Source of the DNA: Alphaproteobacteria bacterium
GTDB lineage: Bacteria > Pseudomonadota > Alphaproteobacteria > Rs-D84
Reading direction: 5' to 3'
NCBI GenBank assembly: GCA_015062445.1
Contig: SUUQ01000002.1
Location: 23,051-87,050, forward strand
DNA: 64,000 bases
The notes below the pieces were generated by a model. The model was not told where the DNA came from and did no database searches. It saw only the letters and a program-made list of their open reading frames with translations. This document shows, piece by piece, positions 2,227 through 47,816 of the stretch; position 1 is the stretch's first letter; every line of letters starts with the position of its first letter. A program made the position numbers and the translations under genes.

Positions 2227-2293
2227 AATTAATGGCTTGAATTTTTGGCATTTTATGCTATATTTACCCCCGTTAACAATAGAGGAAATTTCC

Positions 2294-2860
2294 ATGAACT
2301 ATCCATATATGCCAAAATCAACTGCACTGTGGTTAATTGAAAACACGTCATTAACATTTGAACAAATCGCAGATTTCTGTGGTCTGCACGAACTGGAAGT
2401 CAAAAATATTGCAGATGCAGAAACATACAAATTTCAACCACTCAGTCCAATTTTAAGTGGACAAATTACACGTGCCGACATTGAACGTTGCGAGGCCAAT
2501 CCATCAGAACGTTTAACATTGCGTACAGAAATCATTGAATCACAAAAGGCACAAAATAAACGTGGCATCGGTTACACACCAAAAATCCACCGCCAAAATC
2601 GCTTGTTCGGTGTATGGTGGATTGTAAAGCACTATCCAGAATTATCAGACGGTCAAATTGCACGTCTGATGCACAGTACAAACCCAACCGTTGCATCAAT
2701 TCGCAACAAAACCCATGCTTCGTATGCCGAATTGGAAAAGGGCGGCGTCAGCCCAATCGTATTGGGTCTGGTTTCTGAATCCGCAATCCTAGAAGCGGTT
2801 GCCAAGGCCGAAAAACAGGCCGCTTCGCCAAAATCAAAATCCAAGAAAAAGAAAAAATAA
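2294..2860 (+). CDS. DUF1013-family protein (TrcR-like cell-cycle transcriptional regulator of alphaproteobacteria); start chosen at the internal ATG with an AGAGGAAA ribosome-binding site
   Basis: Motif MPKSTALWLIENTSLTFEQIADFCGLHELEV is typical of the alphaproteobacterial DUF1013/TrcR family; lysine-rich C-terminal tail; the longer ORF begins at 2237. Confidence 0.65.
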   Translation: MNYPYMPKSTALWLIENTSLTFEQIADFCGLHELEVKNIADAETYKFQPLSPILSGQITRADIERCEANPSERLTLRTEIIESQKAQNKRGIGYTPKIHRQNRLFGVWWIVKHYPELSDGQIARLMHSTNPTVASIRNKTHASYAELEKGGVSPIVLGLVSESAILEAVAKAEKQAASPKSKSKKKKK

Positions 2861-19374: not shown

Positions 19375-22248
19375 TTAGTCTATCGCATGGTATGTGGTGC
19401 CGTTGTATTTTACATTCAGTCCGCTGCCTGCACCAGCTGCCAGACTACCATAGCAAATCGTATCGTTCCACAGGACATTAATCGCCGGGGCTGTACGGGC
19501 AGATGTATACAGCGGTATCTGTAACCCTGTGCCAAGGTGGATGTGCGTAATGCCAGATTCGCAGAATTGGCCACACTGGTTATCTGATGTCAGATTATAC
19601 CCATCGTCACATTCCCACGGACACGTATTGGACGATGCGGTGCCGGTGTAATAACTGTTGTCGGGTTTGTTTGTGCATTCTTCACACCCCGGCGTATCGC
19701 TATAGGCATGAATATCAAAAGTTCCGATTTTGCACGTGTACGATTTAACCGGCTGATTACAATCTGTCGGTGTGCATGATGTATCGGTTGCAGACTTGTA
19801 ATCACGCCATTTGCACGTTCCCGGTGTACACGTGAGACAGGTATAAGATTCACTGTTTTCGGGTTGTGAACACGATAACTGGGAACCAGTGTTTGTTTTG
19901 GATTCATAGCAATATGCATCGCTGATACTGCCACCATCTGATGATGGGTATGCCGTTGGACATGCCGGGCATGTTGTGCCAGATACATAGTAATTTGCAC
20001 TGGCGGTAACGGTTTTTGGTTCTTTGATACAGGTTTCATTTGATGTGGTACCTGATGTGGTGCCGTTATAGTATTTTATGTACGTATCCCCTGTACATGA
20101 ACATGCGTTCCATTCCGTTACAGATGCACATCCCGATGGGACATCACCATTATTTTGTGTACAGCCACGTGTTATGTTTGTATAGCATGAATTAATGCTG
20201 GTGGCACCCGCAGAACTGTTTGGGTATCCACTGGGGCATGATGTACGATTATTATCCCCGGGGCAATAGTATCCAGCTTCGCATTTGGCACATAAATCAC
20301 CACTTTTATAATACCCGGCTGAACATGTTACAGTCCACGGACCATACGACCAATCACCACAACTGGACGTACCAGTGCATGCCGATGACGATGTCGAGCA
20401 TGCAGGACTGCTGCTGCGATAGCATGTACGTGATTTTGAACGTGTACGTGAACCGCCGGTTATTGTTTCTGTATCGGTACCACTGTCACCATATGACACA
20501 CCTGTACACGATGCACATGATGAACCAGATTGATAATACCCCGCATCACAGCACCATGGGCAATTGCTTTCCACTGCGTACATGCTTGATGGTGTTGAAT
20601 AACTGGTATAATATGAATTCGCGGGTTTATTTGTACAGGCAGTACATGAATTGTACCAATTATTATACCATATCGGGTCGGACGCATAGTATCCAGTACG
20701 ACACCATGAATAGTATGTAAAGTTATAGCCCGATGGTCCATTATAACATTGTGTTTCGTTCAAATATTGTACACGTGTAGAATCACTTAAATACCAATCA
20801 CAAATACAGTCAGACGAACTGGCACCATGGGTATAGTCGGACCAACTGCCACTGGATAAACTGTAGATACTGCTGGGGGTTGGGGAGCCGGATTTAACAG
20901 TTGTTGAACATGCGGCCCGATGTGTCCCGCCGGTACAGAAATATCCACTGCCACAGGCCGAGCATGACGATTGACCCGTTGATGTATTATAATACCCGGG
21001 GGGGCACCAATTTCGTCCCTGGACACCGCCATTATACGTCCATGTGCCACCGGGACAGTAATAGCCCGCCTCGCACAATGAACATGATGTTCCATTCAAA
21101 TAGTATCCAGCTGAACAGCTGTATGATTTTGGTTTTTTTGTTGCGGTTGTACATGTACATGAAGAACTGGCCACACTGCATCCGCCAAAGTTGGTACAGG
21201 AACCATAGCTGCCACAGGAACCCCAACTGCCACAGGACCCCCAACTGCCACAGGAACCCCAGCTGCCACAGGAACCGAAACTGCCACAGGCCCCCCAATT
21301 GCCACAGGAACCATTCGTCCATTCACTGTATGATGTAGCAGTTGACGAGCACCCCGAACACGTGTCACCAGCCGAATAACAACCATCTGTATAAGAACCT
21401 TTACAGTCTACGTATTTTGTACGACTGCGAGAGTATGTTCCATATTGTGTGCCATACTTGGTACCATAACGTGTTCCATAACGGGTGCCATATTGTGTAC
21501 CGTATTTTGTACCATATTTGGTACCAGAACATGTAGTGGCATTATACGTACAATCATATCCTGTTGGGCACGGTTCATATACACCGCAACTGACACTGCA
21601 CGATTCGCTGCAACTGGTGCTGCATCCCTGGCTGCAGGTCTCAGAGCAAGTCTCTGAACACGACGCACTGCATCCCTGGCTGCACGACAGACCGCTTTCG
21701 GTTTCTGTTGTTGTACTTAAACGCGATGAATTGCTGCGGGTGTTACAGTGTGTTGTACATGTTGGAGAATATGAACAACTGTCGGGGTAATATGCCTGGA
21801 TGGCATCGGGGGTATACGTATATCCGCCCGATTGGTATGATGAACAACTTTTATAACATGTACTGTAATCGGTGCCTGAACAAGAACCATCATATCCAAC
21901 CGATTCGCCGCAATCACATAAGTCCACCAGCCCCCCTTCGCAACATCCTGTTTTCGTATTACATGTTTTACCAAGTATACAATCAATATCAGATGTGCAT
22001 CCAATACAGTCTAATCCTACAGTGTCGCGTTGGCATGTGCGGCTTGTCCGGTCACAATATTCATCAGATTCACATTGGCTGTCGCGCAGACAGGATGCGC
22101 CAATCAATGCGGATGCCGGTGTTGATATTATTGCCGGCACCAAGAACGAAAACGCAACCAGAACCACCTGCAGTGTCGTAAACAAACGGTGGTTTAAAAA
22201 CAACATAACGGAGAGACAAAATGTTGCGGAAAAGTGGGAAAAATTCAA
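19375..22248 (-). CDS. giant (957 aa) secreted, extremely Cys/Ser/Thr/Gly/Tyr-rich repeat protein with eukaryote-like (ephrin-receptor/GCC2_GCC3/TNFR-like) C-x2-C...GYYC modules; the start may be the internal Met at 22206
   Basis: Signal peptide ...VVLVAFSFLVPAIISTPASA; modules such as CSAGYYLNGTSCSLCEAGYYCPGG and CTNKPANSYYT..CPWCCDAGYY; low-complexity runs (YGTK)x8, (GSCGSW)x6 and SCSETCSETCSQGCS encoded by 12-bp and 18-bp DNA tandem repeats. Confidence 0.75.
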   Translation of the reverse strand: MNFSHFSATFCLSVMLFLNHRLFTTLQVVLVAFSFLVPAIISTPASALIGASCLRDSQCESDEYCDRTSRTCQRDTVGLDCIGCTSDIDCILGKTCNTKTGCCEGGLVDLCDCGESVGYDGSCSGTDYSTCYKSCSSYQSGGYTYTPDAIQAYYPDSCSYSPTCTTHCNTRSNSSRLSTTTETESGLSCSQGCSASCSETCSETCSQGCSTSCSESCSVSCGVYEPCPTGYDCTYNATTCSGTKYGTKYGTQYGTRYGTRYGTKYGTQYGTYSRSRTKYVDCKGSYTDGCYSAGDTCSGCSSTATSYSEWTNGSCGNWGACGSFGSCGSWGSCGSWGSCGSWGSCGSYGSCTNFGGCSVASSSCTCTTATKKPKSYSCSAGYYLNGTSCSLCEAGYYCPGGTWTYNGGVQGRNWCPPGYYNTSTGQSSCSACGSGYFCTGGTHRAACSTTVKSGSPTPSSIYSLSSGSWSDYTHGASSSDCICDWYLSDSTRVQYLNETQCYNGPSGYNFTYYSWCRTGYYASDPIWYNNWYNSCTACTNKPANSYYTSYSTPSSMYAVESNCPWCCDAGYYQSGSSCASCTGVSYGDSGTDTETITGGSRTRSKSRTCYRSSSPACSTSSSACTGTSSCGDWSYGPWTVTCSAGYYKSGDLCAKCEAGYYCPGDNNRTSCPSGYPNSSAGATSINSCYTNITRGCTQNNGDVPSGCASVTEWNACSCTGDTYIKYYNGTTSGTTSNETCIKEPKTVTASANYYVSGTTCPACPTAYPSSDGGSISDAYCYESKTNTGSQLSCSQPENSESYTCLTCTPGTCKWRDYKSATDTSCTPTDCNQPVKSYTCKIGTFDIHAYSDTPGCEECTNKPDNSYYTGTASSNTCPWECDDGYNLTSDNQCGQFCESGITHIHLGTGLQIPLYTSARTAPAINVLWNDTICYGSLAAGAGSGLNVKYNGTTYHAID

Positions 22249-36603: not shown

Positions 36604-38784
36604 TTAAAACATCGGTGGAAAACATTCACCTGTCTCTTCGGCACAGCATGCATATTCGCCGCCACCAACATCTGTTAAATATTCTCCCGCACAGCACCCA
36701 TCTGCATCTGGTGCATTACCATCGGCACAGTTTTCTACAACTTCTTCTGACACAAAATCTTCGGCATAAATTTCTGGTTCAGAAACATTTTCCACCACCG
36801 GTTCTGCAAATTCAACCACCGGCAGTTTTGCAGACACTGCTTCCTCAGACACAATCTCATCATCTGTATCCGATTCAAACTCCGCATCTGCCACAAACAT
36901 CTTTTCATTTTGCGACACATTATATGCTGGTTTAGCAGCCAATATTTCTGCCTCGCTTGGTATTTTTTTAACTGGCTCTGGCACAACTTCTTCTGCGACT
37001 TCTACCACATCCACCAAAACGGGTGTTGGTTCTGGTGTAACCTCGACCGGCAAAGGTTTAACATCTGCAACTGGTTGCACCGGTTCAGCCGGTGTTGCCA
37101 CCACAGTTTCTGGCACAACATCCTCTACCACAACCGCCACAGATTCAACAGCAACCGGTTGTTCTGGTTCATCATCAAGTTCCACTTCCTCTGGCACTGC
37201 GTCTTTCTTATCCTCAACAGTCGCAACCTCTACAACCTCTGCAACCTCTGTAACTGCCGGATTCTTTTCTGCCAACTCTGGCATCGAGTCATTTGTCATT
37301 TTTTGCTGATACACCCACAGTGTAAACACCGACAGCACAATCAGCAAAATCAGCATTACATAATACAACATTGTTGGCTTCTTGCGAATACCATTAACAT
37401 CTTCGACTGGTGCGACACCTGTTATTGGCGACACAGGCCTAAACTCTGAACTGATTGGCGCAGGCGCAATTTCTGGCATTGATGCCACCTGTGGTCCAGG
37501 TTCCACAACAGGTTCTGACGACAAGCTGGGCACAATCGGCGCAGGGGATTCATATGATTGCTCTGACAAGACTGGCACATCCGGTTGCTGCGACAATGTC
37601 GACAACAGTTCAGAATCAATCTGTTCAGACGGCTGCTCGACAGATCTCAAATTATCCAGCACAGAATCATTAACTGGCTGAATATAATCATCTGCACCAT
37701 CATTTGGCTCTGCCATTTCTGCTACTGCAAAATCATCCGTTACGGGCGACACAAATCTCAGCGGCTCTACCGTCTGTGATTGTTCTGCCACCTGGTTGTT
37801 TGCCACCGGTGCCACAGGCACATCAAAATCAATTGGTTTGAACGCAATTTCATCATCCAAAATATTTGGATTTTTATCAAACAGTGGTTTTACTTCATCA
37901 TCTGCCATTTCAATTGCCTTTGTTTCTGTGCTTATTTCATCATTTTTTACATTCATTGGGACCGGCGCAGGTTCAACCACCGCCACATCACCATGGACAG
38001 TTTGGGCCGGCATCACATCATATTTCGGTGCAACAATTGGCAAATCCGCATTTTCATCTGCCCCAGCATCCCCAGCACCTCTTTCATCCAGCAATCGCAA
38101 AACATAGATTGCCTGTTCTTTATCATCTTCTGCGGCGCTTAATCTAACCTTGGCATTATCCAGTCTTTTATTTGCCCGCCCCAGTTTATCTGTCACCGTA
38201 TCAATTTGCGATTCGACTTTCAGTATCTTAGCAGCCGACTGTTTTGTTGGTTCTTTACCGACATTTCGACGATAATCTGCCAGTTTGACCCGCAGTTTTT
38301 TTAACTTTTCTTGTAATTCTGCGATTGTTTCTGTTGTTTTTTCGATTGTCTCGCGTGATTTTTCTGCGGTTATTTCTGCATCCGCCAGTCTTTCATATGC
38401 CGCCCGTCGATTTGCGCCCAGCAAGAATCGACCAATTTTGTTTAACACCTCATCGTCAATTGCCGCCATTTTATTTGCCGCAATCAGTGCATCATATTCT
38501 GCCAGTCCTGTATACTCGATATCCAGTTTTTGATATTTATTATCCTTTTTAGGGCGCACAGTTTCCAAATCCACCCCATAATCATTGGCCAAGATATCGT
38601 CCCACTTTCTACTGCCGATTGGGTTTATTATCAACATTGCATTCGGTTTAACATCATTGATTGTTGTGTCCAGCACGAACACCAACTTATCATCTGCATC
38701 GAAATAGGCACGAAATGTAAGTCCTGCGATATTAAAATCTGCACGTGTCAGTGTTTGATAAAGATTTTCTCTCTCGTTTGGCAT
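36604..38784 (-). CDS. large (726 aa) repetitive acidic protein: N-terminal globular and coiled-coil region, one central transmembrane helix, Pro/Glu/Val-rich repeats, C-terminal Cys cluster
   Basis: Coiled-coil ...TIEKTTETIAELQEKLKKLRVKLADYRR...; TM LYYVMLILLIVLSVFTLWVY; PEV-rich low complexity (VVPEPV, PEPTPVLVDVVEV...); tail ...GCCAGEYLTDVGGGEYACCAEETGEC. Confidence 0.65.
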   Translation of the reverse strand: MPNERENLYQTLTRADFNIAGLTFRAYFDADDKLVFVLDTTINDVKPNAMLIINPIGSRKWDDILANDYGVDLETVRPKKDNKYQKLDIEYTGLAEYDALIAANKMAAIDDEVLNKIGRFLLGANRRAAYERLADAEITAEKSRETIEKTTETIAELQEKLKKLRVKLADYRRNVGKEPTKQSAAKILKVESQIDTVTDKLGRANKRLDNAKVRLSAAEDDKEQAIYVLRLLDERGAGDAGADENADLPIVAPKYDVMPAQTVHGDVAVVEPAPVPMNVKNDEISTETKAIEMADDEVKPLFDKNPNILDDEIAFKPIDFDVPVAPVANNQVAEQSQTVEPLRFVSPVTDDFAVAEMAEPNDGADDYIQPVNDSVLDNLRSVEQPSEQIDSELLSTLSQQPDVPVLSEQSYESPAPIVPSLSSEPVVEPGPQVASMPEIAPAPISSEFRPVSPITGVAPVEDVNGIRKKPTMLYYVMLILLIVLSVFTLWVYQQKMTNDSMPELAEKNPAVTEVAEVVEVATVEDKKDAVPEEVELDDEPEQPVAVESVAVVVEDVVPETVVATPAEPVQPVADVKPLPVEVTPEPTPVLVDVVEVAEEVVPEPVKKIPSEAEILAAKPAYNVSQNEKMFVADAEFESDTDDEIVSEEAVSAKLPVVEFAEPVVENVSEPEIYAEDFVSEEVVENCADGNAPDADGCCAGEYLTDVGGGEYACCAEETGECFPPMF

Positions 38785-38804: not shown

Positions 38805-39398
38805 TTATTTTTTCTTTGGGGGCGTAAATTGATACGCCTGCTTGCAGTGTTCATAGCAATATGGTTTACCCACAAAAACCGTTTCACCACAGAAATGGAA
38901 ATGTTCTGAATCTGGATCGCCGATTGGCCATCTGCATTGATTCGGCTTCAGATTTGCCATTTCCAGCGAGTGTTGCACGATACGCTGGTGCGCTGCCAAT
39001 GCCTTGGCACTGGTTTTTGACACTGCTGGTTTAGGTTCCGTTTTTTTTACATCTGCAACCTTTGCTGTCGCAGATTTTTCTGTTTTTACTTTTTTTTCTG
39101 TCTGCTTTCCCCCAGCTTTTGCCACTGATTTTTTCTCGGTCATAACCTTTGCGACAGCTTTTTTATCTTTTCCTGACTTGCTGCCGGTTGCCGACTTTTT
39201 AGTTGCCACTTTGGCATCTTTTTCTGTGTTTTCCGCTGGCGCACCACCGGCTTTGGCATTCCAGCCCAAACGATTCAGTTTCCCAACGATTGCATTTTTT
39301 GACATTCCCAACCGCTTACCGATTTCGGACGTAGACAACCCCTTGCCAGTTAATGCCTTTAATTTTTTCAGTGCGATATTATCCCAACCTTTGCTCAT
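38805..39398 (-). CDS. gcrA: cell-cycle regulator GcrA
   Basis: N-terminal helix-turn-helix (LTGKGLSTSEIGKRLGMSKNAIVGKLNRLGW), lysine-rich linker, conserved C-terminal CRWPIGDP...FCG...GKPYC. Confidence 0.88.
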   Translation of the reverse strand: MSKGWDNIALKKLKALTGKGLSTSEIGKRLGMSKNAIVGKLNRLGWNAKAGGAPAENTEKDAKVATKKSATGSKSGKDKKAVAKVMTEKKSVAKAGGKQTEKKVKTEKSATAKVADVKKTEPKPAVSKTSAKALAAHQRIVQHSLEMANLKPNQCRWPIGDPDSEHFHFCGETVFVGKPYCYEHCKQAYQFTPPKKK

Positions 39399-39471
39399 TT
39401 TACAAAACCCTTGTTATACTTTATAATATCAGCATAGCACAGTTCCGATTCGAAAGGCAAGGAAGAAAAAT

Positions 39472-39942
39472 ATGAATTCATACATCTTTTTTACAATTTT
39501 ACTGGCGATTGCAGCATATTTATCGATCTGCATATCGATATCTGATTTTCGCCATCGCATTATCCCAGACATATACCTGTTTCCACTGATGTTAATTGGA
39601 TTAATACTGACCGGATACTATTCATACCCGATTGACATATACACTGGGATAATTGGTGGCACATTTGGATACCTGGTATCATTGGTTATGGGCATCATAT
39701 TTACCCAGATACACCGTCGCAGCACCACAGACACCCCCGCACCAATTGGCATGGGCGACATCAAGTTGATTGGTGTTGGCGGAATGTGGCTGGGGGTATT
39801 TGGTCTGTCATTGGCATTAATTATTGCATGCATATTTGGCACGATATGGGCCCGTATTCAGGGCCAACGTTATGTACCATTTGCACCATTCTTTTTATTT
39901 GGTGGATTTTTATCTTTAATTGGCATGCTGTTTTTGATATAA
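39472..39942 (+). CDS. cpaA: A24-family prepilin peptidase (CpaA/TadV-like); no pilus genes follow it
   Basis: 156 aa polytopic protein with the two catalytic Asp regions (IIPDIYLFPL ... GMGDIKLIGVGGMWLG). Confidence 0.75.
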   Translation: MNSYIFFTILLAIAAYLSICISISDFRHRIIPDIYLFPLMLIGLILTGYYSYPIDIYTGIIGGTFGYLVSLVMGIIFTQIHRRSTTDTPAPIGMGDIKLIGVGGMWLGVFGLSLALIIACIFGTIWARIQGQRYVPFAPFFLFGGFLSLIGMLFLI

Positions 39943-39963
39943 TACGCATACAGGGACCTGGAT

Positions 39964-40875
39964 ATGAGAGTTAAATTATCAACATTGCTATGCACATTTT
40001 TTGCCCAATTATCGATATTCTGTGGGCTGTCATACGGTTCAGACACACCATTTTCCAAGTACGGCACAATCCAGAACGTCCAGAATTATTCATCAAATCC
40101 GTTTTGGTCACCAAACGCACCGTACAATCAGCGTATGCCAACTGCCGTCTATGCAACGGGTCCAGACGTTGAAACATCTGAATGCCAGCGAATTGTATCA
40201 TCATTAATAACAACAACCTGTGCGATGCAGAACAATTGTATTGAACTGCAGTTATCTGACATTCGTCCCACAATAATGCTACAGTTATCTCGCATGCCTG
40301 GGGGCAATTATGCAACGGCCTGTCTGGGGTATATTGAACCGACATTTAATGAATACATTGAACAATTCAGCATTGCTGTACCCACGGGTGTCACGGCCTT
40401 TCCGACTGGTTCTGTACCAAATCCCAGTGCCACAGAATCTGAATACCAGATTCAAAACCCATATGAAATTCAGTTGATGGATTGGCAAACTGACGTCATT
40501 GAACGCAAACTGGAACTGCAACAACTGCAATCAATGAATGGGGCAGGGAACGAACATATTGAACGTGCGTCATTTCCCACAACATACGCAGATTTATCAT
40601 TCAGCGAACGCATGGCAAACTCTGCGGCTGGCTATGAACCATACCGGGATAAAAGTGCATATAAACCAATTGAAATTGAATCCCAGGAAGAATACCTGAA
40701 CCGCCAGCAGACATTATCCAACTACAACGCAACAGGCAAAGGCACAAAAAACACCAATTCGGATTTATGCAAAAAAAATCCAAATCACCCAGATTGCAAG
40801 GCAGAAACACCAAAACCACAACTGGTTGAAAATGAACTGCCCACGGTCAAAGACGAAATCTTATTCATACTATAG
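39964..40875 (+). CDS. hypothetical Sec-secreted protein 1 of a four-gene secreted-protein operon (303 aa)
   Basis: Signal peptide MRVKLSTLLCTFFAQLSIFCGLSYG; 22 nt after cpaA; no family recognised. Confidence 0.6.
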   Translation: MRVKLSTLLCTFFAQLSIFCGLSYGSDTPFSKYGTIQNVQNYSSNPFWSPNAPYNQRMPTAVYATGPDVETSECQRIVSSLITTTCAMQNNCIELQLSDIRPTIMLQLSRMPGGNYATACLGYIEPTFNEYIEQFSIAVPTGVTAFPTGSVPNPSATESEYQIQNPYEIQLMDWQTDVIERKLELQQLQSMNGAGNEHIERASFPTTYADLSFSERMANSAAGYEPYRDKSAYKPIEIESQEEYLNRQQTLSNYNATGKGTKNTNSDLCKKNPNHPDCKAETPKPQLVENELPTVKDEILFIL

Positions 40876-40887
40876 GAACACGGTACA

Positions 40888-41901
40888 ATGAAACGCCTGG
40901 CAATATTTTTATCAACATTCATCACATTACATTGTGCAAATGCAGATTTGCTGACTGACTGTATGACAAAAATATCAAACGACCCAAATTTCAGCAACAC
41001 AATGACATCAGAAATATTTCCAAATGCTTCTGAATTATCTCAAGAATACGCAACTCAACGCAAAAATAAAATTATGGGCCTAATTGCTAGCGAGTTTATT
41101 ATACACTGTATGGAAAATATAGACACACACGTAAAGTGTGCAAATGGCAAGGTTTGGTACACCCGGGACGGAAAAACATACGCATTTCAATTTAAAATGC
41201 CTGAATTGTTTCAATATACAGATATACCCGTTGGAATAATGATATATAACAAAACCAATCTTAATATTGGTGAAGTAATAACACTTTCTGATATACCTAA
41301 ATTATATTGGCCAACAGAATGTTCCGACCATGTGATTTGGGATAACCTGAACAATAAAGCCGCCGTCAACGTTGCCGGTCAAAAAGTATTTTCTCAATAC
41401 GGCGGTTCCGACAACGAATTCTTCCTAGACTTTGAAGAGGGCAATAATCGAAGGGCTTTCCCGGGATTGGTTCTTATGGACAAAACATCCTCATCATCCG
41501 AAGCAATTGTTTCGTTTACAAATTTTTACACAGCCGTTAATTCAGCTGAACAGTTTGCAACAGCTCTCAACGGCACTTCTTGCTCAAACGATAACCTTGC
41601 TGTTTATGTAGTTGGACTAGATGTAAAACCATTGTCAACCAAAGACAAAACCGGCTGGGGAATAGTTGCCAGTGTAGTAGGAGGATCAGCTGCAGTTGTT
41701 GGCGTAAGTTCCGCATTGGCCGCTGCTGGTGCCACCAGTGGACTTTTGACAGCTGCAGCAGTCAGTGGCACCGTACCCGTAGTTGGCTGGATCGTCGCCG
41801 GTGTATTGGGGGCTACTGCTACGGTAATCTCACTTGTTCCGACAGAAATAAGAGACATTCAACAAGTCATGGTTCTTGACGGTCCATACATCATCAAATA
41901 A
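40888..41901 (+). CDS. hypothetical Sec-secreted protein 2 with a C-terminal glycine-zipper hydrophobic region (337 aa)
   Basis: Signal peptide MKRLAIFLSTFITLHCANA; about 60-aa G/A/S/V-rich segment (GWGIVASVVGGSAAVVGVSSALAAAGATSGLLTAAAVSGTVPVVGWIVAGVLGATATVISLV) with repeated small-xxx-small patterns. Confidence 0.6.
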   Translation: MKRLAIFLSTFITLHCANADLLTDCMTKISNDPNFSNTMTSEIFPNASELSQEYATQRKNKIMGLIASEFIIHCMENIDTHVKCANGKVWYTRDGKTYAFQFKMPELFQYTDIPVGIMIYNKTNLNIGEVITLSDIPKLYWPTECSDHVIWDNLNNKAAVNVAGQKVFSQYGGSDNEFFLDFEEGNNRRAFPGLVLMDKTSSSSEAIVSFTNFYTAVNSAEQFATALNGTSCSNDNLAVYVVGLDVKPLSTKDKTGWGIVASVVGGSAAVVGVSSALAAAGATSGLLTAAAVSGTVPVVGWIVAGVLGATATVISLVPTEIRDIQQVMVLDGPYIIK

Positions 41902-41908
41902 ATACAAA

Positions 41909-43543
41909 ATGAGATATTTTTTCATCTTGTTTTCAATGTTTTGCATTTCTGCCCATGCGGCGGAAACACCGTGTGCATCGGGGGTATTTTCTGATGCACT
42001 GGCGGCAAATTCTGGGGCAATATCTGAATCTGATTCAGAATCAACGGTCCAGGAATGGGTTCGCCAAACTTTTGCAACAAAAGACACATTAGAACGTGTT
42101 CTGGCATGCCCAGAAATTGCCAACACCGCACCAACACAACCAATTATATTTTCGCCAATCACATACACATTCCCGGGCGGTCGCAACATCACTGTAAATT
42201 ATGAAACGGTGCCAAAATTACTGCAACAACGTATGGCGCTGACCACAAAACAGACCACCCCCGCCAGTCCCAAAATCGGCGAATCCAATGACGGAACCAT
42301 TTGGACAAACACAGACCCGGCCTGGTACGGAATTATGGTTGTCGAACATGGTTCATTATCCGAATTTGTTGGCCCAGACAAGAACAATACCATTTCGTTG
42401 GAATACATTCGGGACAACATTGACACCCTGTATCCTCGTGGTGGCACATGCACCAATCGCACTGCATTGGCAAACGACAACTATGCGATAAACCGTGCCG
42501 TTGCACAAACTGTTAACCTGGACGACGACACAAACGATTACTACGTTGCCGGCGATCGGAATTTGGAATGGATTGGCTATACAGAAATTGCACTGGACGT
42601 TATATTAACGGTTGCGACCATGGGCGGATACACCGCCGTCCTGGGTGCGACCAAGGCCGCCCGTGCATCACGTGCACTGCGTGGTCTGGGGTCAACAATC
42701 AAAACATTGTCCAAAACAGACGATGTTGTTAAATATGTCCGTGCCACCCAGGATGCTGCCCGCCTGACCAAAGAAATTGACGCACTGGACAAAGTCGCCG
42801 ATGCCACAAAAATCGCAGACAAAACTGCCGAGTTAAACCGAATTAATGACAGCATTCGCACCCTGGAATCAACCGATGATGTAAAAAAGTATCGTGATGC
42901 CACAAAAACGTATTCTGACCTGAACAAATATCGTCACAGTTTACGTGGCATGCGCATTGCCCACCGTGGCAATGTCATTGCACGTGCGGCCCGTGCAGCC
43001 CGTGCAACAAAATCCGCCATGACTGGCAACAGTTTAATAAAACACGCACGCAAACTGGGCCGTTCCAGCAGTTTTTCAAACCGCGTACGTGATTGGCTGT
43101 TTGATTCAACACTTCGCAATGCCGGGACGGTTGCCAAGGTTGGGGCAGGGACCAGCTTGGCATATGCCATAATAAAATTCGGCGGCGACCTGTATGATTT
43201 TACCGAAACCACCACAGACGAATACACCAGTGGCATTGACTTTGCCCCATTATTATTACTGTCTGCAGACGACCTTAGTGGCAGTGAAAATGTTGTAAAC
43301 TATGGCATGTGGCTGATGTGGATGGGCGATTCCACCAATCCGGCCGATGACGATGCCGCATATCTGCAGGCGATGGATTTTGCCGCCAAATTTCACCAGG
43401 ATTTAAATGAAATTCAAAACGGTCAAAGCACACCGTGCAACGTTGATATATTTGTTGTCCGCCCTGTTTTACAGAACCCCGGGACAGACAACAGCGCACT
43501 GTATTATTTGATAATGAACGACACCCCATGGACAACGAATTAA
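41909..43543 (+). CDS. hypothetical Sec-secreted protein 3 (544 aa) with an internal tandem roughly 36-aa repeat
   Basis: Signal peptide MRYFFILFSMFCISAHA; repeat TLSKTDDVVKYVRATQDAARL / TLESTDDVKKYRDATKTYSDL; the ATG at 41909 is 8 nt after the upstream stop. Confidence 0.6.
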   Translation: MRYFFILFSMFCISAHAAETPCASGVFSDALAANSGAISESDSESTVQEWVRQTFATKDTLERVLACPEIANTAPTQPIIFSPITYTFPGGRNITVNYETVPKLLQQRMALTTKQTTPASPKIGESNDGTIWTNTDPAWYGIMVVEHGSLSEFVGPDKNNTISLEYIRDNIDTLYPRGGTCTNRTALANDNYAINRAVAQTVNLDDDTNDYYVAGDRNLEWIGYTEIALDVILTVATMGGYTAVLGATKAARASRALRGLGSTIKTLSKTDDVVKYVRATQDAARLTKEIDALDKVADATKIADKTAELNRINDSIRTLESTDDVKKYRDATKTYSDLNKYRHSLRGMRIAHRGNVIARAARAARATKSAMTGNSLIKHARKLGRSSSFSNRVRDWLFDSTLRNAGTVAKVGAGTSLAYAIIKFGGDLYDFTETTTDEYTSGIDFAPLLLLSADDLSGSENVVNYGMWLMWMGDSTNPADDDAAYLQAMDFAAKFHQDLNEIQNGQSTPCNVDIFVVRPVLQNPGTDNSALYYLIMNDTPWTTN

Positions 43544-43607
43544 ATTCTCATTGTCAAAGTCAAAAATATTATTTATAATACAGACAACGAAAACAGGGGG
43601 ACAAGAA

Positions 43608-43925
43608 ATGAGAAAAATATTTTCAGCACTAATAATCCTTGCGACCTGCATCTGCACTGCAAATGCATACCAGGTATTATCATCCAAAGAACTGGGCCGG
43701 AACGAGGCAAAAAATCAAAACGTCACCGTTAAATGTACCACCGACACGGGCAAAGTATCGAATCAGACATGTACACTTCGCCGTTATGCAAAATGTACTG
43801 GCAATGGCACGGCCAAGAAATGCAACGGCTGGCAACCATGGCGTGATTTACGCAATCCATCCCAGCAGTTTTCAGATTGGAAATCCGCGGCTTCTGCATG
43901 CTGTCGTGCCAAAGGGCTGCGATAA
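43608..43925 (+). CDS. small Cys-rich Sec-secreted protein 4 (105 aa)
   Basis: Signal peptide MRKIFSALIILATCICTANA; 8 Cys in the mature part; GGGGG ribosome-binding site. Confidence 0.55.
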   Translation: MRKIFSALIILATCICTANAYQVLSSKELGRNEAKNQNVTVKCTTDTGKVSNQTCTLRRYAKCTGNGTAKKCNGWQPWRDLRNPSQQFSDWKSAASACCRAKGLR

Positions 43926-43945
43926 GACAATAAAATTACGACAAA

Positions 43946-43972
43946 AACACCCGCCAAACGGCGGGTTAAATT
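43946..43972. terminator. terminator hairpin between the secreted operon and the tRNA block
   Basis: acccgccaaacggcgggtt followed by a T-run. Confidence 0.55.
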
Positions 43973-43973
43973 T

Positions 43974-44050
43974 TGGTGGATGTGATTGGACTCGAACCAA
44001 CGACCTCTTCGATGTGAACGAAGCGCTCTAACCAACTGAGCTACACATCC
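43974..44050 (-). tRNA. tRNA-Val (anticodon CAC)
   Basis: Reverse complement folds as GGATGTG..CACATCC acceptor, anticodon stem CTTCG/CGAAG with loop TTCACAT, T-arm GTTGG-TTCGAGT-CCAAT, CCA encoded. Confidence 0.85.
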
Positions 44051-44116
44051 ATTTATAAAAAAATCGCCCAAACACTGGCGAATTGTGGCTTGCCACACGA
44101 AGCCTTTGGCGAAGTG

Positions 44117-44203
44117 TGGTGGGGATAGTGGGACTTGAACCCACACGGTCGCAATGACCAAAGGATTTTAAGTCCTCAGCGTCTACCATTCCGCCATATC
44201 CCC
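44117..44203 (-). tRNA. tRNA-Leu (anticodon TAA), type II
   Basis: Acceptor GGGGATA/TATCCCC, anticodon loop CTTAAAA, long variable arm, T-arm GTGGG-TTCAAGT-CCCAC, CCA encoded. Confidence 0.85.
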
Positions 44204-44223
44204 TGGGACCCAACAACAACTAT

Positions 44224-44299
44224 TGGTGGAGCTGATGGGACTCAAACCCACGACCTCTACGATGCGAACGTAGCGCTCTATCAGCTGAGCTACAACCCC
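44224..44299 (-). tRNA. tRNA-Ala (anticodon CGC)
   Basis: Acceptor GGGGTTG/CAGCTCC with the G3:U70 Ala identity pair, anticodon loop TTCGCAT, discriminator A, CCA encoded. Confidence 0.85.
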
Positions 44300-44308
44300 A
44301 ATAAAAAA

Positions 44309-44395
44309 TGGTGCGGATAAGAAGACTCGAACTTCCATGGTATTGCTACCACTAGTACCTGAAACTAGCGCGTCTACCAATTCCGCCATATCCGC
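44309..44395 (-). tRNA. tRNA-Leu (anticodon CAG), type II
   Basis: Acceptor GCGGATA/TATCCGC, anticodon stem CTAGT/ACTAG with loop TTCAGGT, long variable arm, CCA encoded. Confidence 0.85.
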
Positions 44396-44462: not shown

Positions 44463-45041
44463 TCAGTCATTCAGCGCTTCTTCCAGTTCCCGATCTGGCA
44501 AAACCCACATTATTGCAATTGCAACATATATGACTACGGCCGCATACGGTGCCACAAAAGACAGCGCAATCGCAACCATCAGCGCCAATATCGATACCCG
44601 TTCCCGCAAACCTTGTCGCAATGTCCGCACAATCAGTGCATTCCCGTGATGCGCCCGAAACAGCACATGTTCCAGCAATCTGTATGACAAAATCACCATC
44701 AGCAACACCCCACCATATGTTGCCACTGGCACAGGCGCAACCTGATTTTCATCAACCCACGCAGTCACAAACGGAATCAACGTCAACCAAAACAAGAAAT
44801 TCAAATTTGCCCATAAAATTCCGCTGTTTACCCGCCTGGTTGCCGCCAGCAAATAATGATGATTAATCCAGAAAATTCCGCCATAAACGAAACTCAGCAC
44901 ATATGTCAACAGCATTGGCATCATCTCGCCAAACACACCCCACGATATCTGCCCAATTGGCACCCGCAATTCCAGCACCATGATTGTAATCATCACAGAA
45001 AACAATCCATCACTGAACGCCGCCAGTCTTTCCGTATTCAT
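44463..45041 (-). CDS. TMEM175/DUF1211-family membrane protein (putative K+ channel)
   Basis: N-terminal RLAAFSDGLFSVMITIMVLEL signature of DUF1211; six predicted transmembrane segments. Confidence 0.75.
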   Translation of the reverse strand: MNTERLAAFSDGLFSVMITIMVLELRVPIGQISWGVFGEMMPMLLTYVLSFVYGGIFWINHHYLLAATRRVNSGILWANLNFLFWLTLIPFVTAWVDENQVAPVPVATYGGVLLMVILSYRLLEHVLFRAHHGNALIVRTLRQGLRERVSILALMVAIALSFVAPYAAVVIYVAIAIMWVLPDRELEEALND

Positions 45042-45173
45042 TTTTCATTCCCGATTGTTATTTTTTTATAATGCCCAATTTGAACCGGCAACGCACCAGG
45101 TATAAAATCGCACTTTACTTTTGATTATTCACTTGCGTAAAAAATTATAAATTTGCTAGACTTGAAACCAGAG

Positions 45174-47816
45174 ATGAAGAAACTTCTATTTTTATTTGCA
45201 AACCTGCTGTTTTGCATCGGTTTTTCCGATGCGGCTGTTCGTGATGGCACGGCCATTTCACGCAACAACAGCACACAAACTCGCACTGCAACAACCGCCG
45301 TACGTTCTGCCAAGCCACGCACAACAATACTTTCTTCACGTGATTCTGCCACCACTACTTCATCCCGCTCTGGCACCAATACAACCGTCGTAAACAGAAC
45401 TGCAAGATCCACTGCAACAAACCGCACCAGACCTGCACGCAACACCGAACGCAATGCTGTTGCCCGCAGCACCACAACCACCACCCCTGCAATTGATATA
45501 TCCAACACCCGCACTGGTGCTGAATACGAACGTTGCAAGAACACATATTTTTCATGCATGGATCAGTTTTGCACACTAAAGAACGACGATTATCGTCGCT
45601 GTTCATGCAACGACCGTGTATTCAAACTGACCGAGGTTCGCAAGGTATTACAGGATGCCGGCGAACAATTAACCGTATTCACCGAAAACCTGGACACAGT
45701 CGGCATGACTGCCGCCCAGGCAGCCGCCATGCGTCAAGAAACCGAGGGGGAAAAAGCATTCACCGATGACAATTCTGCATCCAAGGCCCTGCTGAACGCC
45801 ATCATGAATTCGATTCGTGGCCAAGACAGTTCCGTTGGCGGCAAATATGCCGATTTGAACAGCATAAACATCGCCTTTGATACAGTAAATGCGTTTGGCA
45901 TGACAGATGTTGGCCAGGCCATTGCGGCCTATAACGGTAACGCATTGTATAATGCCGTCTATCCCCAGTGTCGCCAAGCCGTACGTGCCGATTGCAATGA
46001 CGCATCACTTCAACGTGCAATTACGGCATACCTGATGGCAATTGAACAAGACTGCAATACTGTACAAACTGCAATTGAAAACACCCAGAAACAATTAAAA
46101 TCCGCCATTCGTGAAGGCGGGGCAATGCTGGATTTGGCACGCATTGAAAACCGGCAAAAACATAACACATCCGACATACCAACCTGTATTAACGAAGTCG
46201 AAGCCGCCATCACCAGTGAAGAAGTTTGTGGTGCCAATTATCACAAATGTTTGGACAATGGTGAATTTATTGACATTTCTACGGGTGCACCAATTACTGG
46301 CGTTGAAAACTTTTATCAACTGGAAGAAATGTTAACTTTCAGCGACGGTATCGAAGCGGTCGATCAAAAGTTATCTAAAAACCCCAGCAATCGAACATTT
46401 GTATTTAATTTTGAAAAACGCGTCAAAAAATTTGCAGAACCTGCACTGGACAAATGCGTTGAAAATGCAGACTTGGTATGGTCTGAATACCTGGACAAGG
46501 CAATGTTATCAATATTCTATGCCCAAAAAGACAAGGTTGCCCAGATAAAGCAGGGCTGTTTTGACTATATTTCTGCCTGTTATATAAACAGCGACACAGC
46601 AATTACCGCAGCCATGGCAGGATTAAGTTCAGAAACTGCGGTTGTTTTGCAACCAGACAAAATTAAACTGAACGCCAAAATGTGTCAAGAATATGTAAAC
46701 TCGTGCGACAATATGTTTGCTGGCAACATAATTGCCGATTATATAAACAACCAAACCCAGACCGACACATTAACAGCATGTCGTGCCGCAGTAAAACAGT
46801 GCTTTGACAAGTACGGTGGCACAAATTATGAAAACTTTTATTATCCCTACAGTGGTTTGTTCGAACCCGGCTATGCACCAGATTGGTTCACATTATACGA
46901 CACAACAGAAAACAAAGAACGCTTGAAAAATGGCACGACATACGTATCCCGTTGTGCCGAGCAACTGACCAAGATTCCGGCCTGCAACAACACACAAATG
47001 ATTGAATCTGCATTTGGCGGGATGGATTATTATGCAACAAACACATACGGCATATCCGGCAAAGGCGCCAGAAACACCCGTGCCACAGGTGTTGCCACAG
47101 AAATATATAACCAGGTTTTATCGCAATTGGCGACACAATGCATGAACCTGCAGGGCCGCTTTGTTGAATACCAACACATTCAAACCAGCAAATACGATCC
47201 AACAGATTTCTGTAAATCAACATTTGATAAATCATTTGAATACAACCCACCGGGCACACCTGATTCTATATATAACCTGTACAGCATTGGTGCGGGCGAA
47301 GATATGTGTCCACGCGATTACAGATTACAGGTCGACACCCAATCATGGGGTGCATGTTTATGTTGGGAAAATGGTGCCCGCCGCAGCAAATGGGGACAAT
47401 CTGCAAAATGTGTAACAGGGCTGCCAGTTATGAAAAACCCGCTACACATCCAAATGAAAAACGACAAAAACGAAGACATCTGCACCAACACCAAGGGCGA
47501 ACAGGGTGTATGCGGAACGGTAAATGCTGCTAATGAAAAATACGAAACACCAGTATTGATTTTACAATTTGCAGACGACACCGAATGCAATTCTGCAAAC
47601 ATGGATGTTGCCCAACATGAAGACAACACAGAAACAACTGATATCAACGAAGCAGTTGGTCCAAACTATAACATACGCGCATGGTGCACACAAACATGGG
47701 TAACCAAGCAAAACCAGGTCTGTCCACTGGGCACAACATCTATCACAGACCCCAAAAACAGCAAGGTATACTGTATGAAAGGCGAAGTCCAGGTTAAGCA
47801 TATTCCTGGAATTTAA
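45174..47816 (+). CDS. large (about 880 aa) Sec-secreted Cys-containing protein with an N-terminal Thr/Arg/Ser-rich low-complexity region; the ORF is also open from a TTG at 45153
   Basis: Signal peptide MKKLLFLFANLLFCIGFSDA; low-complexity TTAVRSAKPRTT...TTTTTPA; more than 40 Cys spaced through a long non-repetitive domain; no family recognised. Confidence 0.65.
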   Translation: MKKLLFLFANLLFCIGFSDAAVRDGTAISRNNSTQTRTATTAVRSAKPRTTILSSRDSATTTSSRSGTNTTVVNRTARSTATNRTRPARNTERNAVARSTTTTTPAIDISNTRTGAEYERCKNTYFSCMDQFCTLKNDDYRRCSCNDRVFKLTEVRKVLQDAGEQLTVFTENLDTVGMTAAQAAAMRQETEGEKAFTDDNSASKALLNAIMNSIRGQDSSVGGKYADLNSINIAFDTVNAFGMTDVGQAIAAYNGNALYNAVYPQCRQAVRADCNDASLQRAITAYLMAIEQDCNTVQTAIENTQKQLKSAIREGGAMLDLARIENRQKHNTSDIPTCINEVEAAITSEEVCGANYHKCLDNGEFIDISTGAPITGVENFYQLEEMLTFSDGIEAVDQKLSKNPSNRTFVFNFEKRVKKFAEPALDKCVENADLVWSEYLDKAMLSIFYAQKDKVAQIKQGCFDYISACYINSDTAITAAMAGLSSETAVVLQPDKIKLNAKMCQEYVNSCDNMFAGNIIADYINNQTQTDTLTACRAAVKQCFDKYGGTNYENFYYPYSGLFEPGYAPDWFTLYDTTENKERLKNGTTYVSRCAEQLTKIPACNNTQMIESAFGGMDYYATNTYGISGKGARNTRATGVATEIYNQVLSQLATQCMNLQGRFVEYQHIQTSKYDPTDFCKSTFDKSFEYNPPGTPDSIYNLYSIGAGEDMCPRDYRLQVDTQSWGACLCWENGARRSKWGQSAKCVTGLPVMKNPLHIQMKNDKNEDICTNTKGEQGVCGTVNAANEKYETPVLILQFADDTECNSANMDVAQHEDNTETTDINEAVGPNYNIRAWCTQTWVTKQNQVCPLGTTSITDPKNSKVYCMKGEVQVKHIPGI

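Follow-up and report, generated by a model that had tools for sequence, protein, structure and literature searches.

Results

An operon of exported proteins beside a tRNA block

We analyzed a 64-kb stretch of contig SUUQ01000002.1 from an uncultured alphaproteobacterium of the Rs-D84 lineage (hereafter the window; 64,000 nucleotides, the positions of which serve as coordinates), whose open reading frames (ORFs) were scanned with the Pfam and NCBIfam profiles. Our subject is a run of five plus-strand genes consisting of an A24 prepilin peptidase of 156 amino acids (aa; 39472–39942, Pfam PF01478) and four ORFs designated p1 (39964–40875, 303 aa), p2 (40888–41901, 337 aa), p3 (41909–43543, 544 aa from its ATG, with a TTG at 41876 also open) and p4 (43608–43925, 105 aa). 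The successive gaps measure 21, 12, 7 and 64 nt, in agreement with an earlier note on this DNA that had described p1 to p4 as four co-directional, operon-like genes. A promoter-like site ahead of p4 on the same strand (43551–43579; TTGTCA, 17-nt spacer, TATAAT) is identified only by its match to the consensus at 11 of 12 positions. Behind p4, a bidirectional terminator-like hairpin (43949–43966; 7-bp stem with six G-C pairs, T-runs on both strands) precedes four minus-strand tRNA genes, tRNA-Val(cac), Leu(taa), Ala(cgc) and Leu(cag) (43974–44395), called by ARAGORN and Rfam; the same note had pointed out this proximity of a terminator and four tRNAs.

The N-termini of p1 to p4, of their orthologues and of all the alternative types of p2 described below have the features of Sec-dependent signal peptides cleaved by signal peptidase I, namely a basic n-region, an h-region of 12 to 18 residues and a small-x-small cleavage site, those of p1 to p4 being judged by eye and not by a predictor. 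The C-x-x-A-N/H-A pattern previously proposed for them survives in part: the A-x-A site is conserved, but the cysteine is not retained in orthologues. No conserved lipobox was found in the four proteins. None of them gave a match above threshold in Pfam, NCBIfam, PADLOC or PHROG scans, in line with the earlier statement that they belong to no known family. Profile searches of the PDB with p1, p2, p3, p4 and two alternative types of p2 (b and c) returned no significant match, and a literature search found no description of p1 to p4.

Domain organization of p1 to p4

The first protein, p1, is made of a signal peptide (residues 1–25), a conserved head (approximately 26–135, with the motif PFSKYGxIQNVQNYSSNPFW), a module also found in a GH108 muramidase of related loci (approximately 190–248, nt 40531–40707) and a type-specific tail (249–303, nt 40708–40872). 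In p2, residues 255–316 (nt 41650–41835) form a Gly/Ala-rich segment in which 51 of 62 residues are A, V, G, S or T. This is the glycine zipper of about 60 residues reported earlier; however, it is not C-terminal as claimed, since a further 21 residues (317–337) follow. In the structure model, these residues form a strand packed into the globular domain (predicted local distance difference test, pLDDT, 94–97), and the hairpin is predicted to be an insertion in a folded domain of approximately 250 residues, more suggestive of an anchor than of a pore former that is released. The confident model of p2 matches no solved fold, and no Pfam glycine-zipper profile matches p2 even at E ≤1.

The largest of the four, p3, has an N-domain of fixed length (residues 19–226, 58% identity), a basic helical arm (246–402; 34 Lys/Arg versus 17 Asp/Glu) and a C-domain (426–544, 71% identity). 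The tandem repeat noticed earlier is real, with copies starting at residues 266 and 318 and an alignment score of 56 versus 24.5 ± 4.7 in shuffled sequences, but its period is 52 aa and not 36 aa; the arm occasionally gains one extra 52-aa repeat. The structure model of p3 is mediocre (pLDDT 58) and no fold or sequence in the PDB matches it. One source names a p3 orthologue (P0060) “cell fate regulator YmcA”, which looks like an over-annotation: the sole support for this name is an insignificant helical-bundle likeness of the p3 arm to RicA/YmcA (Foldseek matches 6prh and 2pih, E 0.6–1.8).

The last protein, p4, is basic (isoelectric point 9.9) and secreted, with a mature part of 84 aa (residues 22–105) and an invariant C-terminus (...CCRAKGLR). 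It had been described as an 8-Cys mini-protein, which holds for the precursor; two of these cysteines lie in the signal peptide and the mature protein has only six, all conserved. Its 470 relatives are almost all ~105 aa long, none of them known from the PDB, and it is present at 66–96% identity in 79 of the 84 related loci introduced below.

The operon is ancestral to the Rs-D84 lineage

Relatives of p3 drawn from a set of 5.8 billion proteins number at least 924, and p4 and p2 have 470 and 116 relatives, respectively; the term “orphan” used for these proteins in the earlier note must be abandoned. A p3 gene is encoded in 217 species genomes, all from uncultured gut Alphaproteobacteria (Candidatus Enterousia/Rs-D84). 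The metagenome-assembled genomes that carry these relatives are labelled Alphaproteobacteria or Candidatus Enterousia, and originate from ruminants, horses, chickens, humans and termites; one of the p3-bearing genomes (L068) is a closed chromosome of 958,618 bp. Because a p3 profile searched against 1.84 billion representatives recovered only 136 clusters, we consider the family confined to this lineage, which bears out the earlier view of a lineage-specific set in a reduced, host-associated genome. Neither homology of p1 to p4 to housekeeping families nor a known function of the block in free-living relatives was found.

We compared 84 loci that carry p3. Their gene order is a 726-aa protein gene (big726, minus strand), gcrA (minus strand), the A24 peptidase, p1, a variable slot occupied in the window by p2, p3, an optional GH108 gene, p4, the tRNA block and an 887-aa protein gene (cys887). 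Presence is near universal for p3 (84), p1 (83), p4 (79), the A24 peptidase (78), gcrA (77) and big726 (76), and is lower for cys887 (47). Of the 20 loci in which the tRNAs were checked, 13 show the complete Val-Leu-Ala-Leu block behind p4 with order and strand preserved, and four more have the block in part or inverted. Pairwise ratios of nonsynonymous to synonymous substitutions (dN/dS) range from 0.06 to 0.27 across all five genes, indicating that p1 to p4 and the A24 peptidase are real genes under purifying selection.

These data bear directly on the reading that follows from the earlier note, in which four orphan effector genes would have arrived by horizontal transfer at a tRNA hotspot, as an island confined to a strain or lineage. 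The operon does adjoin four tRNAs and a terminator, its products match no known family, and relatives do show insertions nearby: a TMEM175-like channel gene (44463–45041, minus strand) occurs in only ~17 loci, which do not include the nearest relative of the window (L005), and in L006 (12125–14100), L013 (12004–15963 and 16039–17152) and L042 (12248–17078) the tRNA block is interrupted or shifted by inserts of ~1–5 kb, each of these loci having received one of ~2–5 kb. Against this stand the synteny of operon and tRNA block across the lineage, the hundreds of orthologues, a GC content of 0.41–0.49 that falls within the range of the window, the lack of an adjoining integrase, and the lack of relatives of p3 and p2 in IMG/VR, which also led us to reject an origin from a phage or plasmid. 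The checks of synteny and GC content suggested at the time thus speak against an acquired island, which we now regard as very improbable. The operon is ancestral to Rs-D84 (Candidatus Enterousia and relatives), the tRNA block is an ancestral neighbor rather than an insertion scar of the operon, and the true variable spot lies around and inside the tRNA block.

Within the same loci, the median protein identity to the window is 93% for LpxA, 87% for Tig, 83% for the M23 peptidase and 73% for LpxB, versus 74% for p4, 65% for GcrA, 57% for p3, 56% for the A24 peptidase and 49% for p1. An impression that p3 is conserved like housekeeping proteins, gained from identities of 55–65%, was rejected in view of the values for LpxA, Tig and the M23 peptidase. 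At 49–57% versus 73–93%, p1 and p3 evolve faster than housekeeping proteins, as would be expected for exposed envelope proteins.

An exchangeable cassette matched to the tail of p1

A homologue of p2 is found in only 12 of the 84 loci, yet nearly all of them carry one ORF of 277 to 619 aa between p1 and p3. Clustering of 65 such slot ORFs by blastp initially gave four families, and re-typing by tblastn took in 85 loci. Type c (41 loci) is Cys-rich with the motifs WNDPGV...FCWNW...QCG; type b (17 loci) is a protein of ~495 aa that ends in ...CDWNEDDIDMY...IRIDD; type d (11 loci) is a paralogue of p3 (29% identity over 400 aa); and type a (10 loci) is the p2 of the window. Three further loci, L018 (6827–9816), L024 and L037, hold tandem cassettes of types a and b. 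One locus, L067 (9225–11593), has no slot gene and a p1 cut down to its head (197 aa), and another, L084 (8563–9894), encodes a 443-aa p1 with an unclassified extension. All slot types have a signal peptide and a Gly/Ala-rich hydrophobic segment. Profile-profile comparisons of types a, b and c each with p3, and of a with b, revealed no similarity. A domain common to p2, p3 and the slot types, suspected from motifs resembling C..D.YVV, was rejected (hhalign 3–13%) with the exception of type d. We conclude that p2 belongs to a set of at least four unrelated slot proteins that can take each other's place.

The distribution of slot types barely follows descent. On the p3 tree, slot type requires at least 29 changes versus a mean of 34 after shuffling, which is near-random, and the nearest neighbor has the same type in only 40 of 76 cases. 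The nearest relative L005, with a p3 that is 89% identical, carries type c, and the best match of p2 (74%, in L081) is accompanied by a p3 of only 53% identity. Alignment of the window with L005 (39249–44451) delimits the exchanged segment: the two are collinear at 81% identity up to position 40709, share no DNA similarity between 40710 and 41946 on the plus strand, and resume at 92.8% from 41947. Within this segment lie the p1 tail, all of p2 and the signal-peptide codons of p3, the left breakpoint falling inside p1 at approximately residue 249. Synonymous divergence (dS) is 0.83–0.93 to the left of the cassette and 0.19–0.22 to its right, a mosaic ancestry from which it follows that a recombination junction coincides with the cassette. 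Only p2 and the p1 tail are mobile, and they move through exchange between lineages of Enterousia rather than through insertion next to the tRNAs; no additional small ORF accompanies them.

The p1 tail changes together with the slot protein. It ends in ...GEILFIL with type a, ...LIDRIIAAFPK with type b, ...C...C.LQGTY with type c and ...KIVLSY with type d. Per residue, tails of the same slot type have a similarity of 1.93 and tails of different types one of 0.58, a difference of 1.35 to be compared with 0 ± 0.095 under label shuffling; for the p1 head, the effect is small and phylogenetic (0.25). Such co-variation is the signature of an adaptor tail matched to an exchangeable partner.

Several unrelated cassette families that turn over frequently at a single locus, together with an adaptor tail matched to the cassette, are also what one would expect of a polymorphic toxin or bacteriocin-like module, in which the slot proteins would act as membrane-inserting or enzymatic effectors against competitors or prey, p1 as their adaptor or chaperone, and GH108 as a wall-breaching co-effector. 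The Gly-zipper hairpins would suit such a role, as would the similarity of type c proteins to Gly-zipper_YMGG (16–17.5 bits, below the cut-off of 28.9), a faint match of p2 to the type VI secretion system (T6SS) effector Bfe1 (15.9 bits versus a cut-off of 315) and the similarity of GH108 to phage endolysin profiles. We nevertheless regard this explanation as unlikely. Neither p2 nor types b, c and d gave a match above threshold in Pfam, NCBIfam, PADLOC or PHROG, none pointing, short of remote homology, to a toxin or to immunity; no toxin domain is recognizable and no immunity gene stands beside the cassette; and no genes for T6SS, type V (T5SS) or type I secretion were found in the locus or window. 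In addition, the p2 hairpin is modeled as an anchor-like insertion in a folded domain, the structural protein p3 has a paralogue among the slot types, and the dN/dS of p2 is low (0.06).

A GH108 muramidase fused to operon proteins

In 27 of 79 loci, a gene for a secreted GH108 muramidase of ~350–380 aa lies between p3 and p4. Its match to the GH108 family (PF05838) scores 60.3 bits in L001, and 34.3 bits in L040 where a weak PG_binding_3 match is added; against PHROG endolysin profiles, the protein reaches E 5e-31. Its N-terminal ~100 residues are homologous to residues 190–283 of p1. Full-length fusions of p1 with GH108 occur in five loci (L040, L054, L063, L064 and L066), a fusion of p3 with GH108 is found in P0269, and p1 is fused to the p3-paralogue slot type in P0322 and several loci. 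Such fusions speak for a joint action of p1, p3-type proteins and the muramidase in the periplasm. Since the muramidase is fused behind the p3 C-domain, this domain would be periplasmic.

A constrained control region shared with gcrA

Upstream, the operon is separated from the divergent gcrA gene (38805–39398, minus strand) by 73 nt (39399–39471). Read on the plus strand, this region contains a promoter-like site (39399–39427; −35 TTTACA, 17-nt spacer, −10 TATAAT, 11 of 12 consensus positions) and a GANTC site (39447–39451) inside a small TCGAWTCGA-like palindrome. It is nearly invariant among 69 loci, with 82% identity to the window versus 59% at third codon positions of lpxA, and GANTC is present in all 69. 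No Rfam family matches the region, and a CtrA box (TTAA-N7-TTAA) was found in none of the 69. In Caulobacter, GcrA is a sigma-70 cofactor that favors promoters with methylated GANTC. The region may be an element of the GcrA/CcrM type that controls the operon, gcrA or both.

GcrA is one of two alphaproteobacterial cell-cycle regulators retained in the window despite the very small genome, the other being TrcR (2237–2860, plus strand). A control region shared with gcrA and an invariant GANTC, the conservation of the divergent arrangement, muramidase fusions to both p1 and p3, and retention of the operon in nearly all species of a lineage with ~900 genes could together mean that the operon encodes the cell's own wall morphogenesis or division complex, under GcrA/CcrM-type cell-cycle control and with the slot protein as a dispensable accessory; the presence of TrcR would fit as well. 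We hold this to be possible but somewhat unlikely. Wall enzymes of the same loci are far better conserved than p1 and p3, repeated swapping of a cassette with its matched tail would be unusual for a division machine, and most loci have no GH108. Moreover, GANTC is neither depleted nor enriched in the window, hence no such sign of CcrM, and no CcrM was seen in the 64 kb.

A TadV-like peptidase among non-pilin neighbors

The A24 peptidase is the only member of the operon in the window with a family assignment (PF01478, 55.7 bits versus a cut-off of 26.5, E 7e-15). It is of the short TadV/CpaA type, with five hydrophobic segments and without a methyltransferase domain. Its catalytic motifs, D25 (SISDFRHRIIPD; D25...IIPD) and G93-M-G-D96 (GxGD96), reach a conservation of at least 95% among 71 orthologues; on the strength of these preserved catalytic Asp motifs the enzyme looks active. 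Its dN/dS is ~0.2, and the gap to p1 is typically 15–36 nt among orthologues, a signature of co-transcription.

We searched for its substrates with a regular expression combined with hydrophobicity in all ORFs of at least 35 aa. No credible or conserved class III signal (G/XXXXE[YF] or KG/FTLIE) was detected in ORFs of the window or of the 84 related loci. Neither did any of the ~49 ORFs of the window match the Secretin, T2SSE, T2SSF, TadE or Flp families of Pfam, a search outside of which ~93% of the genome lies. Two statements of the earlier note, that the peptidase has no pilin or secretin nearby and that p1 to p4 are not pilins, are upheld by these scans.

Even so, 78 of 84 loci keep a TadV-like peptidase, its catalytic motifs intact, as the first gene of the operon, which invites comparison with a remnant or derived Tad or type IV pilus-like system, whose peptidase would cut non-canonical substrates of the operon or small pilins encoded elsewhere, p1 to p4 being the fibre or its accessories. 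A candidate cleavage site, situated before the second hydrophobic segment of p3, is its Gly406, which is at least 90% conserved together with Lys410 within a segment of only 35% identity, and which precedes a part of ~138 aa that would be pilin-sized. On the other hand, the +5 residue after Gly406 is not Glu, no G/XXXXE(Y/F) signal occurs in any ORF of the window or of the 84 loci, p1 to p4 all carry ordinary cleavable Sec signals, and neither a secretin nor an ATPase nor a platform protein is encoded in the 64 kb. A published comparison mentions type IV pilus genes only for another lineage and not for Rs-D84 (PMC12306168). A pilus-like system strikes us as quite unlikely.

Neighboring genes and other features of the window

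The remainder of the window is occupied by housekeeping genes, including those for TolQ, RuvB, ArgRS, L13/S9, trigger factor, ThyA, LpxA/B, an M23 peptidase, LeuRS, RpoD and TrcR, among others. Located 20 nt downstream of gcrA and probably co-transcribed with it, big726 (36604–38784, minus strand) encodes a protein with a coiled-coil N-terminal half, one strong transmembrane segment (residues 473–491) and an extremely acidic, Pro/Val/Glu-rich C-terminal half (146 Asp and Glu) with a Cys-rich end (...CCAGEY...CCAEETGEC...). It matches no family and is only ~42% identical among the 76 loci in which it occurs. On the other side, the secreted cys887 protein (45153–47816, plus strand) contains 33 cysteines, has no family match and, with ~57% identity, is retained just past the tRNAs in 47 loci; it may share the envelope theme of the operon. 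A further ORF of 957 aa (19375–22248, minus strand) encodes 97 cysteines (10% Cys) and has no Pfam match. In L001, whose genome is ~1 Mb, a Cas9-like gene (20670–21671; HNH, RuvC_III and Cas9_RuvC) is located ~9 kb downstream of the operon.

Discussion

A proposed envelope assembly with an exchangeable subunit

Our preferred reading, which we hold tentatively and rate at somewhat less than an even chance, is that the operon encodes an assembly of the cell envelope peculiar to this lineage: a wall hydrolase would be recruited to it, and an exchangeable subunit, matched to the p1 tail, would confer specificity. The A24 peptidase, p1, p3 and p4 would constitute a fixed core that together builds an assembly in the periplasm or envelope. 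In this model, p3 would be the scaffold, with its N- and C-terminal halves both periplasmic and flanking the basic helical arm, and p4 a small, basic, disulfide-rich partner. p1 would be a three-part adaptor: its head would belong to the core, its middle module is also found in the wall-opening GH108 muramidase, to which some species have it fused, and its tail would be specific for the protein encoded in the next slot. This protein, p2 in the window, would be interchangeable, would bear a Gly/Ala-rich hydrophobic hairpin, and would be swapped by recombination along with the p1 tail. The whole would be transcribed with the TadV-like peptidase from the strongly constrained promoter beside gcrA. 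The rapid divergence of the operon proteins and the turnover of the cassette suggest a surface exposed to other organisms, and the exchangeable subunit is most likely what makes contact with the outside, whether with cells that serve as partner or prey, with phages or with competitors.

Several observations weigh against this proposal. p1 to p4 have no homologue of known function, and we infer, rather than observe, that their products form one physical complex, where it is located and that it plays a role in cell-cell interaction. The muramidase is not encoded in the window and occurs in only 27 of 79 loci; the cassette is dispensable, given that L067 has no slot gene. The link between the A24 peptidase and the operon is one of adjacency, in genomes of generally conserved synteny, and a class III signal is found in none of the operon proteins. 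The hydrophobic segments of p3 are borderline (residues 227–245, median Kyte-Doolittle value 1.79) or weak (403–425, 0.84), so the arm may either cross the inner membrane or stay periplasmic. Finally, about one quarter of the ORFs of the window are lineage-specific unknowns, often secreted, and therefore unknown secreted proteins are not unusual in this genome.

What is known of the host is compatible with an apparatus turned outward. Enterousia belongs to the uncultured order Rs-D84, whose genomes of ~1 Mb or smaller are without pathways for amino acids, nucleotides and lipids and without flagella, and for which a lifestyle of obligate symbiont or parasite has been suspected (PMC12306168). 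Rs-D84 also occurs in higher termites that are free of flagellates (PMC11257099), so these bacteria are not simply endosymbionts of protists. A fast-evolving operon whose cassette turns over fits the suspected partner-dependent lifestyle.

A more specific version of the proposed envelope assembly would be a previously undescribed apparatus by which obligately partner-dependent Alphaproteobacteria interact with other cells. Its fixed scaffold (p3, the p1 head and p4) would be joined by a muramidase that is recruited and by a plug-in tip or payload drawn from several unrelated families and matched to the adaptor tail. The TadV-like peptidase would mature it by acting on non-pilin substrates, for instance by cutting p3 at Gly406 to release the pilin-sized C-terminal piece. 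We regard this fuller scenario as speculative and improbable as a whole. Two findings go beyond the earlier note, namely the fusions with the muramidase and a cassette that is swapped along with an adaptor tail matched to it.

Enterousia and other Rs-D84 bacteria are widespread in the guts of humans, livestock, birds and termites. The operon, with several protein families that have no relatives outside the lineage, provides a concrete and testable candidate for their interface with partners, prey, phages or competitors. If the A24 peptidase acts on the operon's own products, the substrate range of A24 enzymes would be widened. If the module is instead a cell-cycle-controlled wall-remodeling complex, it would still be a new one.

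Comparison with known systems

The operon qualifies as a member of none of the known systems that we considered, and only the A24 peptidase and, in relatives, GH108 hold as family assignments. It lies outside every known kind of system, a statement based on the absence of matches and not on a demonstrated new mechanism. The Tad/Flp (type IVc) pilus with its peptidase CpaA/TadV resembles it in having a short A24 peptidase without a methyltransferase domain, with both Asp motifs, at the head of an operon of exported proteins in an alphaproteobacterium. However, no Flp pilin or TadE/TadF with a class III signal and no CpaC, CpaF or TadB/C is encoded in the operon or in the 64-kb window, and the downstream proteins have ordinary Sec signals and no homology to Tad proteins. 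With phage lysis cassettes (GH108 endolysin, holin and spanins), the operon has in common the match to endolysin profiles and the neighborhood of small proteins with a hydrophobic hairpin and of a small secreted protein with cysteines; it differs by its chromosomal location, order-wide synteny, purifying selection, lack of IMG/VR relatives and of other phage genes, and by the optional nature of GH108.

Gly-zipper proteins such as SlyB/PCP and the Rickettsia 17-kDa antigen resemble p2, a secreted protein of a Gram-negative bacterium, in a ~60-residue segment rich in Gly/Ala/Ser/Val with repeated small-xxx-small spacing. In p2, by contrast, no lipobox is present, the zipper is inserted in a 250-residue domain without a solved-fold match, and no Gly-zipper profile of Pfam matches; type c gives only matches below threshold. 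A parallel in organization is offered by hydrolases dedicated to a given machine, such as FlgJ, VirB1, EtgA and PleA: here too, the muramidase is fused to a structural or adaptor protein in some species, separate but with the same docking module in others, and missing from the locus elsewhere. It is nonetheless a GH108 enzyme and not a GH73 enzyme or lytic transglycosylase, its partners are unrelated, and genes for flagella and for type III or type IV secretion are missing.

The exchange of the cassette can be compared with polymorphic loci that have matched adaptors. These include the VgrG/adaptor/effector genes of T6SS, the CdiA-CT/CdiI pairs of contact-dependent inhibition (CDI) and the pilin-allele/accessory-gene groups of P. 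aeruginosa. The operon departs from them in that domains for toxicity or immunity are missing, as are genes for T6SS and T5SS, that one cassette type is a paralogue of p3, and that the products appear anchored by Gly-rich hairpins. What it has in common with them is a conserved gene whose C-terminal tail co-varies with an exchangeable downstream gene, and a frequent turnover by recombination among close relatives. Its position adjacent to tRNA genes also resembles that of the P. aeruginosa pilA locus.

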